DNA of 38,382 bases, taken from Candidatus Thalassarchaeaceae archaeon (GTDB taxonomy: Archaea; Thermoplasmatota; Poseidoniia; Poseidoniales; Thalassarchaeaceae). The stretch is from assembly GCA_046710875.1 (NCBI GenBank), contig JBKEHQ010000004.1, forward strand, positions 1-38,382, in the 5' to 3' direction. The notes beneath the pieces are model-generated. The model did no database searches. It saw only the letters and a list, made by a program, of their open reading frames with translations, and was not told where the DNA came from. Position numbers and translations under genes: made by a program. Shown here in pieces: positions 303-5,280 of the stretch (position 1 is its first letter; every line of letters starts with the position of its first letter).

Positions 303-1229
303 ATGTCGACTAAATCAAACATATTATTTGGAATTTACTGCCCACCGCATCCCCAACCGCTCCTTGCTCCTGAATTAAATCAAGGATATGGTAATTTACG
401 TTCAGCATATGATACTCTTAAAACTCGGATTGAAGAAAGTGGTGCAGATATAATATTAGTTTATTCTACTACATGGCCAAGTATAGTCGGGCATCAAATC
501 CAGGCACATCCGGAGCCAGAATGGACCCATGTCGATGATGATTTTCATTTTTTAGGCAGTATGCCCTACAAATTTAAAATTGACTCAGATTTTTCTAATG
601 AATACATGGAAGCTGCAAAGAAACGTGGCCTCCATTCAAGAACTGTGGCTTATGATGGATTTCCTATAGATACTGGTTCAATAGTCGCCCTATCTCTTTT
701 AAATCCAGATAATAAAATTCCAGCATGTATAATTTCAAGTAATATGTATTCCAATAGGTCAGAGACTATAGTTCTAGGAAAGGCTGCGAATGATGCCCTT
801 TCAACTCAGGGAAAAAAGGCAGTAGTAGTAGTAGTTGCTAGCTTGTCTAACAGAATGTTTACTGAACATATCGATCCATCAAAAGATAGGATTCATAGTC
901 CTAAAGATGATGAGTGGAATAGGAAAATATTGGAATTCTTCAAAGACGGTAGACTAGAGGATCTTAGTCAATTATCTAGAGATATTCATGGTCAAATAAG
1001 GATACAAAAGGTAGCTGCCTACAAGCCAGTATGGTGGATGGCAGCAACAATGGGCCAACATAATAATTATGACGGGGAAATTCTTGCTTACGAAGCCTTA
1101 CATGGCTCTGGAGGAGCAATTATTCAACTAACGCCGTCACATGAATCTGTAGGGGACAAAGAATTCGATGAAGATGATGTTGAATATTATCAAGGAGATC
1201 GTAACGTCTTAGGGCAGGGCGCATTATGA
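303..1229 (+). CDS. amnA: 2-aminophenol 1,6-dioxygenase-type alpha subunit (LigB family)
   Basis: PHPQPLL, VYSTTW, GHQ, GFPIDTGSIVA and DDEWNRKILE are LigB-family motifs. It lies directly downstream of the beta subunit. Confidence 0.7.
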   Translation: MSTKSNILFGIYCPPHPQPLLAPELNQGYGNLRSAYDTLKTRIEESGADIILVYSTTWPSIVGHQIQAHPEPEWTHVDDDFHFLGSMPYKFKIDSDFSNEYMEAAKKRGLHSRTVAYDGFPIDTGSIVALSLLNPDNKIPACIISSNMYSNRSETIVLGKAANDALSTQGKKAVVVVVASLSNRMFTEHIDPSKDRIHSPKDDEWNRKILEFFKDGRLEDLSQLSRDIHGQIRIQKVAAYKPVWWMAATMGQHNNYDGEILAYEALHGSGGAIIQLTPSHESVGDKEFDEDDVEYYQGDRNVLGQGAL

Positions 1230-1696
1230 ATGAAAATAATCAAACAGATGATAAAGGCCTAATTGAAAAATTATTGCCAGAAGATGGCCCATTTATTGCA
1301 ACTAAAGGACCATCTTCTGTAGGGGCATATCCTCACCTCTACAGGTCTGGTGACCTAATTTTTGTTAGCGGAATAGGTCCAAGATCCCCCCTCACTAATG
1401 AGATAATAGGGGGTGCGATTAGAGATAAAAACGGCAATTCTTTAGAATATGATATACGTAAACAAACAAGGTCAGTTATCGAGAATATTAGTATTATTTT
1501 GGAAGAATATGGTTCAAATTTGTCAAAAGTTATTGATGTTTATTCAATGCTAATAGATATGGATCGTGATTTTGAGGGATATAATGAAATATATGCTGAA
1601 TATTTTTCGAAAATAATGCCTTCACGTACGACTTGTTCGGTTTCAGCACTGCCAACTCCAATTGCCGTTGAGTTGAAAGTTATCGCAAAAGTATGA
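1226..1696 (+). CDS. RidA/YjgF-family protein, probable 2-aminomuconate deaminase
   Basis: Motifs GAYPH, FVSGIGPR, PSRTT and LPTPIAVELKVIA. ATGA overlap with the upstream dioxygenase gene. Confidence 0.8.
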   Translation: MNENNQTDDKGLIEKLLPEDGPFIATKGPSSVGAYPHLYRSGDLIFVSGIGPRSPLTNEIIGGAIRDKNGNSLEYDIRKQTRSVIENISIILEEYGSNLSKVIDVYSMLIDMDRDFEGYNEIYAEYFSKIMPSRTTCSVSALPTPIAVELKVIAKV

Positions 1697-1750: not shown

Positions 1751-3418
1751 ATGAGAAGATTTTCTCCTAACGAACTTTTTGGTATAGTTCTACAACCAAT
1801 TGAACAAGTATCAGATACTTTGGAACGAAAATTGGGATTATTCTCAGTTGTAATAATATCCCTCTCCGCAATGTTAGGTTCAGGATTGTTTGTCCTCCCT
1901 GCATTGGCTATGCTTGAATTGGGAGGTGGTTCAAATCCAGCAGGAGGAGTTTGGCTAGCCTATTTGCTAGCAGCATTAGTTGTTCTACCTGGTGCTATTT
2001 CAAAATCAGAACTTGCAACGGCCATGCCATCCTCTGGGGGCTCATATGTTTACATCGAGAGAACCTTCGGGCCATTGATTGGAACTATTTCAGGATTGGG
2101 ACTCTGGGCCAATTTTATGCTCAAATCTGCTTTCGCATTAATAGGATTCAAGGCTTATTTATGGGTTCTTGAAGATATTTTTGGGATGAAAATAAATCTC
2201 GAATATGCTTCATTAATTTTATTGATTTTTATTGTCATAATAAATATTATGGGAGTTAAGAGAATTAAAAAAGTACAAACTCCAATAGTACTTTTGTCAA
2301 CTATATTTCTATTTTTAACATGTATTTTAGCAATTTTTACAGTTGAAATGAATTGGAATAATGTATTTTCTGGAGATGCCTTTGGGTCGGGCTGGGAATC
2401 AGTTGCATCCACTGCAGCATTAGTATTTGTTTCATATGCTGGAGTTACGAAGATTGCAGCAGTTGGCGGAGAAATAAAAAATCCAACTAATAATATACCA
2501 AAAGGGATATTATTATCATTATTTTTTAGTACATTTCTTTATGTATTTGTTACTTTGATAATGGCTGCAAGTGTAGATCCATCATTCTACGTAGAAGAAG
2601 GAACGAGTCATGCTAGGGAAGATCCAGTTTACATTTTCGCAAATGAGGTTGGAGGTTATAATTTTGGAATTTTTGCTGCTTTTTTGGCTGTATTGACAAT
2701 GACTTCTATGGCATTAGCCGGAATTATGGCATCTTCACGTTTTCTTTTTGCAATGGCGAGAGATAGTTTACTGCCAGATTTCCTTGAAGATGTACACGGG
2801 AAATTCGAAACTCCTCATTGGGCCATAATCTCTACAGGAGCCGCAATGTACTTCGCAATTACCTTTTTACCAGTCCATGATGTAGCAGAATTAGCATCCG
2901 GATTTAAAATTATGATATTTATTATTATCAATTCTTCAGTAATAATTCTACGTCGTTCAAGTAATTCTCATTCATGGTATAATCCAGAATGGAAATCTCC
3001 CTTATTCCCTTTTTTCCAAATAATGGGAATAATTACTAGCATTGGCCTATTATATCTAATGGGGTCCAAAGCAATCATTGGAGCATCAGTTGCAATTATT
3101 ATTGGGTCGATAATTTATTTTTCATATGGGAAGAAACATCAAAAACCTGAAATTACTCCTTGGAATACCTTTAGGTTGATGTTAACTAATCCTGATGAGG
3201 TCGAACATCGTCGCCGACATGCAGCATTCCATGCTGCAGATATCGAGGGAACCAATCATCTAAATTTACATGAATTTGTAGCTGCAATGACAGCACTTGG
3301 TTACAATGGAGAAAATCAAGATACTCTTAGGTCATATTTCCATAGTGTCGATGAAAACGAAGATGGCGTAATTGATATAGATGAATTTTTAATTTATGTC
3401 GAAGAAACTGAATTTTAG
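1751..3418 (+). CDS. APC-family amino acid permease with C-terminal EF-hand pair
   Basis: LERKLGL, MLGSGLFVLP, ELATAMPSSGGSYVY, FVSYAG and SRFLFAMARD, with about 12 hydrophobic segments. The C-terminal loop DENEDGVIDIDE is a canonical EF-hand. Confidence 0.9.
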   Translation: MRRFSPNELFGIVLQPIEQVSDTLERKLGLFSVVIISLSAMLGSGLFVLPALAMLELGGGSNPAGGVWLAYLLAALVVLPGAISKSELATAMPSSGGSYVYIERTFGPLIGTISGLGLWANFMLKSAFALIGFKAYLWVLEDIFGMKINLEYASLILLIFIVIINIMGVKRIKKVQTPIVLLSTIFLFLTCILAIFTVEMNWNNVFSGDAFGSGWESVASTAALVFVSYAGVTKIAAVGGEIKNPTNNIPKGILLSLFFSTFLYVFVTLIMAASVDPSFYVEEGTSHAREDPVYIFANEVGGYNFGIFAAFLAVLTMTSMALAGIMASSRFLFAMARDSLLPDFLEDVHGKFETPHWAIISTGAAMYFAITFLPVHDVAELASGFKIMIFIIINSSVIILRRSSNSHSWYNPEWKSPLFPFFQIMGIITSIGLLYLMGSKAIIGASVAIIIGSIIYFSYGKKHQKPEITPWNTFRLMLTNPDEVEHRRRHAAFHAADIEGTNHLNLHEFVAAMTALGYNGENQDTLRSYFHSVDENEDGVIDIDEFLIYVEETEF

Positions 3419-3481: not shown

Positions 3482-4297
3482 ATGTCAATCGCGAGTCGAG
3501 CCAAGAAAGTAACAACACATACCCTGCAAGAGATGAAGCATGAGGGTGAGAAAATTACTATGCTCACTTCTTATGATTATTCCTTGGCAAAGTTGGTCGA
3601 CGGCGCGGGAATAGATGTAATTCTTGTTGGAGATTCTGCTTCTAATGTAATGGCAGGAAATGATACGACTGTTCCAATAACATTAGATCACATGATATAT
3701 CATGCCCAATGTGTCGAAAAAGCCGTAGATAGAGCATTAGTTGTTGTCGATATGCCGTTTGGTTCTTATCAGGGGGATTCAAAAAATGCTCTAGACTCTG
3801 CAATACGAATAATGAAAGAAACAGGGGGGCATGCCGTTAAATTAGAAGGTGGAATCGAAGTAACCGATTCAATAAAGAGAATAATGACTGCTGGAATACC
3901 AGTTATGGGGCATCTTGGATTAACTCCTCAGTCTATTTATAAATTTGGTACTTATACCGTAAGGGCAAAAGAAGATTTGGAAGCTAAGAAACTATTAGAT
4001 GATGCTATAGCATTAGAAAATGCAGGGTGCTTTTCAATAGTTTTCGAAAAGATACCTGCAGAATTAGCCAAGAAGGTGACTAAGTCATTATCTATTCCAA
4101 CTATTGGAATAGGGGCTGGCCCGGACTGTGATGGGCAAGTATTAGTATTACATGATATGCTTGGGATGACAAAAGATTTTAGTCCAAGATTTTTAAGAAG
4201 ATATGCAAACCTAGGCGAGATTATCGATCTAGCAGTCAAGCAATATATTGTAGATGTTAGGAGTTCTGAATTTCCAAATGAAGATGAAAAATATTAA
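3482..4297 (+). CDS. panB: 3-methyl-2-oxobutanoate hydroxymethyltransferase
   Basis: [33 protein letters not shown] and GIGAG..CDGQVLV. Confidence 0.97.
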
Positions 4298-4323: not shown

Positions 4324-5280
4324 ATGAGTGAATTATGGGTTGAAAGATATCGTCCAAAAACAGTATCTGAAATAAAAGGTCAGCAGGCGGTTGTAGCAAG
4401 ACTTAGTGCGTATGCAAATAATAAATCATTCCCTCATTTACTTTTTGCCGGGCCGCCTGGAACTGGTAAGACTACTGCTGCATTGGCCCTAACTAGAGAT
4501 GTCTTTGGGAAAGAATTTAGAAGAAATATTTTAGAAATGAATGCAAGTGATGAGCGTAAGTTAGAGTCAATACGTACAAAGGTGAAACAATTTGCTAGAA
4601 CTGCACCAAGTCCAGGAACCTCATTTAAGGTAATTTTTCTAGATGAAGCAGATGCACTAACTCCGGATGCACAAGGTGCATTACGCAGGATAATGGAACA
4701 AAATTCTGAAACGTGCAGATTTATCCTATCCTGTAATTATTCTTCTAAGATAATTGAACCAATTCAGTCTAGATGCGCTGTTTTTAGATTTAGGCCATTA
4801 GAAAATGAACAAATATTGGAGAGAATATCAATTGTAGCTAAAAATGAAAATATTATGATAGAGCATGAAGCAGCAAAGGCGATTGCACAAGTTAGCCTTG
4901 GAGACCTTAGAAAGGCAATAACATCATTGCAAGTTGCAGCATCTTTGGATTCAAACGTAACAAGGGATTTAGTTTATGAGACCACAGCAACAGCACCTCC
5001 TGAGGCCTTACATCGTTATTTTCTAGCCTGTAAAGAAGATGGTTTCCAACCAGCAAGAAGGCGTTTGAAAGAAATTTTAAACAATTTTGGATTAGCCGGT
5101 ACAGATTTTGTGAATCAATTACATAGAGAATTAAGTATGGTAAAATTTCTTGACGAATTACAAAAATTAAGTATTACTGAAATTATGGCGGAGACTGACT
5201 TTAGAATGGTTGAAGGAGGGGGCGAATCTCTTCAACTTGATGCCATGACTGCAAAAATATGTGCAATATTAAATATCTAA
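4324..5280 (+). CDS. rfcS: Replication factor C small subunit
   Basis: LWVERYRP, Walker A GPPGTGKT, NASDER, Walker B DEAD, SRC motif and GDLRKAI. Confidence 0.97.
   Translation: MSELWVERYRPKTVSEIKGQQAVVARLSAYANNKSFPHLLFAGPPGTGKTTAALALTRDVFGKEFRRNILEMNASDERKLESIRTKVKQFARTAPSPGTSFKVIFLDEADALTPDAQGALRRIMEQNSETCRFILSCNYSSKIIEPIQSRCAVFRFRPLENEQILERISIVAKNENIMIEHEAAKAIAQVSLGDLRKAITSLQVAASLDSNVTRDLVYETTATAPPEALHRYFLACKEDGFQPARRRLKEILNNFGLAGTDFVNQLHRELSMVKFLDELQKLSITEIMAETDFRMVEGGGESLQLDAMTAKICAILNI

Follow-up and report, generated by a model that had tools for sequence, protein, structure and literature searches.

A gene in the window (the whole 38,382-nucleotide stretch of DNA analysed here, from a Candidatus Thalassarchaeaceae archaeon) encodes a 555-residue protein in which a 12-helix transporter of the APC fold is followed, in the same reading frame, by a C-terminal pair of EF-hands. 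The preferred reading, held tentatively and drawn from sequence comparison, is that the tail would serve as an optional Ca2+ modulator, with a single site, of an APC carrier preferring anions (anionic amino acids or related organic acids), and that it is likely to lie in the cytoplasm, where it is predicted to dock on the transporter’s inner side.

The transport domain matches the Pfam family AA_permease_2 (PF13520) over residues 28–437 (E = 2.7e-41), with PF00324 also above its cut-off, and is the product of the single gene with a PF13520 match found in the source genome (87% complete). The tail matches EF-hand_7 (PF13499) over residues 491–550 at 33.9 bits, against a cut-off of 30, and reaches 38.3 bits for EF-hand when scored alone. 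In the AlphaFold model, computed from a 43-sequence alignment (mean pLDDT 80, pTM 0.78), the 12 transmembrane helices are followed by a linker helix (residues 470–479 in the model) and two helix–loop–helix units, made up of helices 481–496, 506–515, 523–533 and 543–552 with short strands in both loops. Pfam, AlphaFold and Foldseek all place the transport domain in the APC/LeuT fold, with ten core and two additional helices and with TM1 and TM6 broken; the tail has the paired helix–loop–helix arrangement and short inter-loop strand of an EF-hand lobe. A chance motif or an assembly chimera is ruled out practically beyond doubt, as 116 homologues align across the junction of transmembrane domain and tail, an EF-hand Pfam family being precomputed for 110 of these, and two single-contig genomes (G006 and G066) contain the fusion. 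Parts of the gene are covered by RNA contigs that come from two runs of one sample, with positions 3010–3363 in none; such contigs cannot show transcription or its level.

Features of the transporter gene and of the genes around it (window positions; residues are those of the 555-residue protein)
Feature	Position	Strand	Basis
LigB-family dioxygenase ORFs, two	3–293 (partial), 303–1229	+	Pfam, conserved neighbours
RidA-family ORF	1226–1696	+	Pfam, conserved neighbour
Whole gene, APC-fold transporter with C-terminal EF-hand pair	1751–3418	+	ORF, Pfam, AlphaFold
N-terminal extension, residues 6–14, predicted tail contact	1766–1792	+	Structure prediction
12-TM APC/LeuT-fold transport domain, residues 28–463, colinear with GkApcT	1832–3139	+	Pfam, AlphaFold, Foldseek
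K125 (TM3), aligned with GkApcT Ala119, ligand-pocket wall	2123–2125	+	Alignment
K234 (TM6b), beside GkApcT Asp237 position (Thr here)	2450–2452	+	Alignment
G324 (TM8), aligned with GkApcT Met321; invariant in 43-sequence alignment	2720–2722	+	Alignment
Linker helix after TM12, residues 467–479, TPW motif; main predicted docking element	3149–3187	+	Model
EF-hand 1, residues 481–515, loop 3239–3274; non-canonical, probably structural partner	3191–3295	+	Sequence, model
EF-hand 2, residues 523–552, loop 3350–3385; canonical D-x-N-x-D-G-x-I-D-x-x-E, likely Ca2+ site	3317–3406	+	Sequence, model
panB	3482–4297	+	Pfam
Replication factor C small subunit	4324–5280	+	Pfam

Loop 1 (bases 3239–3274, DIEGTNHLNLHE) and loop 2 (bases 3350–3385, DENEDGVIDIDE) lie in frame with the transporter, as the preliminary description of this DNA had it, and are surrounded by the phenylalanine anchors that it pointed out (F493, F509, F530 and F546). 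It had also named poor conservation of the loops in orthologues as something that would refute its reading. A PROSITE-type EF-loop pattern was scored in 51 sequences under 90% identity, drawn from a set of 147 that are 500 residues or longer; it fits loop 2 in 46/51 but loop 1 in 4/51 (47/53 and 1/53 in an overlapping set), and the whole tail has been lost about eight times in the Poseidoniaceae-type family. The EF2 ligand positions are nearly fixed (D1 in 51, N/D3 in 50, D/N5 in 50, G6 in 50 and E12 in 47 of the 51 orthologues) while the non-ligand positions 2 and 4 vary, their commonest residues occurring in 19/51 and 13/51, a pattern expected under selection for metal ligation. EF1 retains D1 (47/51), L8 (48/51) and E12 (46/51), with G, K or P often found at positions 3 and 5 and N mostly at position 6; the window’s own loop 1 departs from the canonical pattern, having E at position 3, T at position 5 and N instead of G at position 6. 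Several lineages have an EF1 with insertions or without D1 and an EF2 that is still canonical. Glutamate at position 12 of an EF loop is a bidentate ligand of the Ca2+ type. Judged from these residues, only EF2 looks functional, EF1 probably being a dead site, and EF2 very likely binds Ca2+. The pair had been called calmodulin-like, which overstates it: calmodulin-family proteins have four EF-hands in two lobes, and here there is one two-EF lobe (residues 481–552) with one site probably dead. An F-H-x-x-D motif precedes both loops (positions 3227–3241 and 3338–3352), a hint at an origin of the pair through internal duplication; H494, H503 and H531 are unusually conserved.

The family profile aligns with GkApcT across the 12 helices, up to residue 463. 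Since the GkApcT N terminus is cytoplasmic, as a passage of PMC5803215 states, this colinearity would place the tail after TM12 inside the cell, in line with the earlier expectation of a cytoplasmic tail. Docking was predicted by folding residues 1–463 against residues 466–555 with two Ca2+ ions and an alignment of its own. The transmembrane domain and tail scored 0.69, versus 0.00 for the best of three controls, the runs agreeing in at least 95% of contacts with a partner pLDDT of at least 79. In calibration, 116/157 solved complexes and 2/215 mismatched pairs reached the mark, figures that hold only roughly here because the run used its own alignment and a ligand; that the docked partners are neighbouring parts of a single polypeptide counts against the weight of the result. 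The predicted contacts, which express model confidence and not measurement, join tail residues 467–494 and 515 with residues 6–14, 104–110 and 399–410, and are made by the linker helix and EF1, leaving the EF2 loop outside the interface. The tail is predicted by this model to dock on intracellular loops, at the inner face of the transporter. Alignments of most relatives with USP or EIIA tails begin only at about residue 23, past the N-terminal extension.

The fusion is an order-wide architecture of Poseidoniales in which the tail is not universal. Homologues that have names are Ca. Poseidoniales or Thalassarchaeaceae, which puts the source genome in Marine Group II (MGII). Matches to the tail query were obtained in 139/165 genomes of the family taken to be Thalassarchaeaceae (f1), 124/189 of that taken to be Poseidoniaceae (f2), 1/1 of f3, 0/43 of the presumed sister order (f4) and 0/2 of f5; the overall figure of 265/401 includes weak matches to other EF proteins and is not a count of fusions. 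The transmembrane domain was matched at E = 1e-40 or better in 17/21 f1, 41/42 f2 and 0/8 f4 genomes, and is present in 138/151 f2 and 122/141 f1 genomes. Searched with the whole protein, the ESM Atlas gave two clusters that combine both domains; of their few members for which a record exists, 100% and 83% are archaeal; among proteins of 973–2775 residues none was found with this tail, which is weak evidence. A homologue labelled Woeseiaceae (P0063) is probably mis-binned, as it comes from a 3.5-kb contig and its tail region is identical to that of the archaeal P0060–62.

Tail loss was followed in Poseidoniaceae, where all 43 short-frame orthologues whose sequence was read out stop 6–45 residues past TM12, and no trace of an EF-hand is left in any reading frame; with 11 further short frames, the tail-less count is 43–54 of 138. 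The tail-less genes fall in eight separate clades of a gene tree that includes 53 EF-bearing loci, and several are well-supported sisters of tailed genes. The tail was not found elsewhere in 20 tail-less and 5 further short-frame genomes (positive controls, 3/3; completeness, 71–93%). With the clean stops, this means that transport does not need the tail, which so many relatives have dropped that it is likely to be an optional regulator. The gene tree mixes genera, and transfer may therefore account for part of the spread of tail loss; near-identical second copies of the fusion in two genera (G006:C1:1126950–1128254 and G103:C139), together with the mixing of genera g14–g18 in the tree, suggest transfer within the family. 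Of the 43 tail-less genes, 19 have tyrosine in place of T233 (the GkApcT Asp237 position), and tyrosine is not common there in EF-bearing genes; the number matches the size of the largest tail-less clade (19 loci; L040, L042–L045, L048 and others). In the window’s own family there are 12 short or interrupted frames, of which ten were examined: three run off contig ends, six have a tail match and one is that of genome G370, so that the 122 Thalassarchaeaceae genomes gave no confirmed case of a clean tail-less gene. The G370 gene (contig C16; L200:1642–2121) is interrupted by one in-frame stop codon where TM12 ends and keeps an intact EF tail downstream, possibly an assembly error, or else a very recent loss or an intermediate of tail loss.

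Relatives with other tails were collected by searching 1.84 billion representatives, with Pfam run on 56 of the best 150 matches. The nearest relatives without EF-hands, at 44–50% identity in the transmembrane domain, carry USP, PTS-EIIA or TrkA_C tails. Of the tails previously named as usual for prokaryotic APC permeases, USP and PTS-EIIA do occur among these close relatives; CBS is found in none of the 56 scanned, and TrkA_C is to be added. In a midpoint-rooted FastTree phylogeny of 144 transmembrane domains (22 EF-type and 122 others, leaving out matches under 500 residues, one partial EF match and two short alignments), the 22 EF-type domains form one clade with support of 1.0 among the 122 longer-tailed relatives, next to proteins of about 900 residues, several of which scored for USP plus EIIA. 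Related loci in GTDB number 571, and the best 80 of them belong to Planctomycetota, Myxococcota, Bacteroidota and Bdellovibrionota. From one such clade amid USP/EIIA-tailed relatives we infer a single tail swap, in which a Poseidoniales ancestor would have exchanged the USP/PTS-EIIA tail of a permease of the two-lysine APC subfamily for an EF module. In the ESM Atlas the tail alone gave only generic EF clusters scoring below 0.9, including small stand-alone archaeal EF proteins, and none that points to a donor.

After such a swap, EF1 would have taken on a structural role, for which the N-lobe of cardiac troponin C is a parallel. Ca2+ at EF2 would then move two helices, the one that enters EF1 and the TPW linker. 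Both are predicted to rest on the loop between TM2 and TM3, on the TM10 end and on the N-terminal stretch preceding TM1a, and the movement would bias the inner gate, with activation and inhibition both possible. That Ca2+ binding alters transport in some such way is somewhat favoured.

The tail could instead be a structural module, or one constitutively loaded with Mg2+ or Ca2+ (acting in stability or oligomerization), or a sensor of bulk divalent ions, so that there is no switch and transport is largely indifferent. Such a role would accommodate the roughly eight losses with clean stops, the degenerate EF1 and an EF2 loop outside the predicted interface. It would also suit the five shallow loss clades, in which no clear compensation is seen: their divergence at conserved sites is 0.03–0.04, versus 0.035 in EF-bearing relatives. 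Ten of 158 conserved transmembrane sites (R337, E346 and H407 included) depart in at least three of the eight loss clades, a comparison biased by a site set that was taken from EF-bearing sequences. The docking residues show no clear decay in tail-less orthologues (R104 is kept in 40/43 and G107 in 42/43), and the TP motif is kept in 24/43. We nevertheless regard a tail of this kind as rather unlikely, given that the position-12 glutamate of EF2 is of the Ca2+ type in 47/51 sequences, that the window’s own family has yielded no confirmed clean loss in 122 genomes, and that the tails found at the same position in relatives are of regulatory type.

The substrate pocket is marked by two lysines. 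K125 is present in 51/51 EF-type orthologues and 121/122 non-EF relatives, and K234 in 51/51 and 111/122; both are kept in 60/60 EF-bearing sequences, and in 42/43 (one gap) and 43/43 tail-less sequences, respectively. The acidic residues of the SLC7/CAT type, Asp237 and Glu115 in GkApcT, correspond to T233 and N121, with neither Asp nor Glu among the commonest orthologue residues, and the TM5 lysine of GkApcT (Lys191, at the Na2 position) is S, A or T in 51/51; this replacement, with the TM8 hydroxyl S319 mostly kept, hints weakly at Na+ coupling. Glycine at position 324 would leave room in the pocket for a bulkier side chain. An open, positively charged pocket, with two invariant lysines and without the counterparts of E115, D237 and K191, argues for an anionic substrate and not for cationic amino acids, and an anionic amino or organic acid is reasonably likely. 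With such a pocket, the amino-acid uptake originally proposed is not established. In SLC7/CAT proteins the TM1 motif G(S/T)G binds the α-carboxylate of the substrate, and the window’s protein has it as G43-S44-G45. It is replaced by PG in 29/96 orthologous loci, all in one Poseidoniaceae clade, so that an amino-acid substrate is not secure; in that clade (L017, L021, L038 and others) TM1 reads ‘MLPGIF’ versus ‘MLGSGLF’, the motif being one residue shorter, which suggests a shift of substrate or mechanism. None of the 21 NCBIfam models matched (TIGR00909, BcaP and FrlA among them) passes its cut-off, the best being TIGR00909 at 218 versus 556.8 bits.

The same lysines could bind Cl− or another inorganic anion in an ion carrier resembling the cation–chloride cotransporters (CCC), in which Ca2+ would gate ion flux and which would be no nutrient permease. 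USP, EIIA and TrkA_C tails are typical of K+ and osmotic systems, and it is these that the relatives carry; two of the relatives’ tails weakly match the C-terminal domain of prokaryotic CCC (PF21554; 26.6 and 23.8 bits, cut-off 27), and the GSG-to-PG replacement would also be at home in such a carrier. A gene for a CPA1 antiporter with TrkA_N is found in 29/84 loci of non-EF relatives; these loci are mostly from Flavobacteria, however, and are thus not independent. An ion carrier is unlikely in view of the score for the K–Cl cotransporter model (TIGR00930), 48.8 bits against a cut-off of 953 and against 218 bits for TIGR00909, and of the rank of GkApcT and other SLC7-type proteins above NKCC1 in both Foldseek and HMM comparisons. 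Its neighbours in Poseidoniales, moreover, are catabolic or biosynthetic enzymes. Among the non-EF two-lysine permeases, the permease gene often lies directly upstream of the CPA1–TrkA_N antiporter gene (L127:8251–10098 and 28 other loci).

Genes for LigB-type dioxygenases and RidA, and panB, are each found in 18 of 20 loci across the order (see the window, L016 and L019–L035). The place of panB varies between genomes, either downstream or on the upstream side of the dioxygenases. Inspection by eye of the 30 commonest neighbour families in the 84 non-EF loci (two families being Pfam-scanned) gave none resembling the dioxygenase, RidA or panB genes. An assignment of the substrate from these neighbours was rejected, because synteny within one order is not independent.

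EF pairs had been described as uncommon in archaea. They are indeed rare in control genomes (PF13499 in 1/14, no archaeon), but Poseidoniales are an exception: all 30 genomes scanned have matches, with 3–17 domain matches each, as do 2/6 genomes of the sister order. The source genome has two Pfam EF matches, two more frames fitting a strict pattern and two genes for CaCA-family exchangers. The exchangers speak for the Ca2+-modulator reading, as do EF fusions in other genomes of the order; the small number of other EF proteins in the source genome counts against it. Other fusions in the order include a receiver domain with an EF pair (L219:1378–2298), a double zinc ribbon with several EF pairs and two transmembrane segments (L221:691–2565), and a multi-pass membrane protein with an EF pair (L228:1291–3129). 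The zinc-ribbon proteins are without an N-terminal hydrophobic segment in a simple scan. A proline-rich 328-residue protein (L002:1003–1989; G000:C8) has one canonical EF loop, and the ORF just before it looks, by eye, like a primase small subunit. Calcium-binding families specific to MGII, such as fam02101 with two transmembrane segments, are listed in PMC9258230, the one paper found that has both ‘EF-hand’ and Poseidoniales or MGII, whereas this fusion does not occur in its accessible part. According to a section of PMC7016017, the EF proteins of calmodulin type in eukaryotes go back to bacteria, and prokaryotes show Ca2+ transients. A cytoplasmic Ca2+ signalling network in MGII, of many EF proteins, receiver fusions and CaCA exchangers, with this EF-switched carrier as one effector, is a doubtful extrapolation for now.

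The original idea in its strong form, a switch with two calmodulin-like sites that is required for general amino-acid uptake, is very unlikely. The modelled paired helix–loop–helix, the resemblance of the tail sequence to troponin C and calmodulin, retention of EF1 D1 and E12 (47/51 and 46/51) and the lone PF13520 gene of the source genome are what such a switch would predict. They are outweighed by the insertions in EF1 and its frequently non-ligand positions 3 and 5 (G, K, P and others), by the absence of the tail from at least 43/138 Poseidoniaceae genomes, and by a pocket unlike that of GkApcT/CAT. For amino-acid uptake in MGIIb, the highly transcribed genes singled out in PMC9723583 encode ABC receptors; the word calcium is absent from the accessible part of that paper.

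If an EF-hand switch of the kind we favour operates, a secondary transporter bearing a cytoplasmic EF-hand would show directly that internal Ca2+ controls a membrane flux in an archaeon. An APC carrier switched by a fused EF-hand would be a design that we have not found described for prokaryotes, a literature search having returned no description of an APC/EF-hand fusion, and the tail-less orthologues would be natural unregulated controls; close tailed and tail-less pairs are offered by genomes G052 and G072, and by the G034/G099 clade and its sister clade in g17. Poseidoniales are abundant, uncultivated marine heterotrophs. The comparison also marks out a large subfamily of two-lysine APC permeases, usually annotated ‘amino acid permease’, with a pocket that argues for an anionic substrate.

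Among proteins of known structure, GkApcT (the SLC7/CAT homologue of Geobacillus kaustophilus; PDB 5OQT and 6F34) is the first Foldseek match, with a TM-score of 0.85 by target and E = 2e-18. It shares the 12-TM APC fold at about 25% identity, the TM1 glycine motif and the TM6 Y-x-G, but has no cytoplasmic tail and differs in its pocket, where E115 is N, S or T in the present family, D237 mostly T, K191 S, T or A, F231 V, M321 G, and A119 and A238 both K. Closer in sequence are the two-lysine APC permeases of Pirellulaceae, Myxococcota, Bacteroidota and other Thermoplasmatota, which have K125 and K234 and up to 44–50% identity in the transmembrane domain. They differ in bearing USP, PTS-EIIA or TrkA_C tails of about 190–520 residues in place of a 90-residue EF lobe, and some lie beside CPA1 antiporters; no functional study of them was found in the literature. 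The cation–chloride cotransporters (SLC12; maCCC, whose C-terminal domain is described in a portion of PMC4301019) likewise combine an APC fold with a cytoplasmic C-terminal domain, which the tails of relatives weakly resemble. The window’s protein is set apart from them by its TIGR00930 score and by a tail that is an EF pair with no USP-like domain.

Regulation of a carrier by EF-hands has eukaryotic counterparts in SLC25A12/13 (aralar/citrin) and SLC25A24 (SCaMC), in which an EF module is likewise fused to a solute carrier, and the SCaMC-1 EF domain is among the PDB matches of the tail. Those proteins, however, have the mitochondrial carrier fold, and their multi-EF domains are N-terminal and exposed to the intermembrane space. 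The tail’s best sequence matches in the PDB include troponin C chains (E about 1e-9); troponin C is a soluble eukaryotic protein with four EF-hands, and the similarity is that of the EF fold in general and does not imply direct descent. Its cardiac N-lobe has an inactive site I and a regulatory site II, and is likewise made of two EF-hands, of which one loop is degenerate and the other canonical. By analogy with that precedent, a lobe with one dead site can still be a switch.
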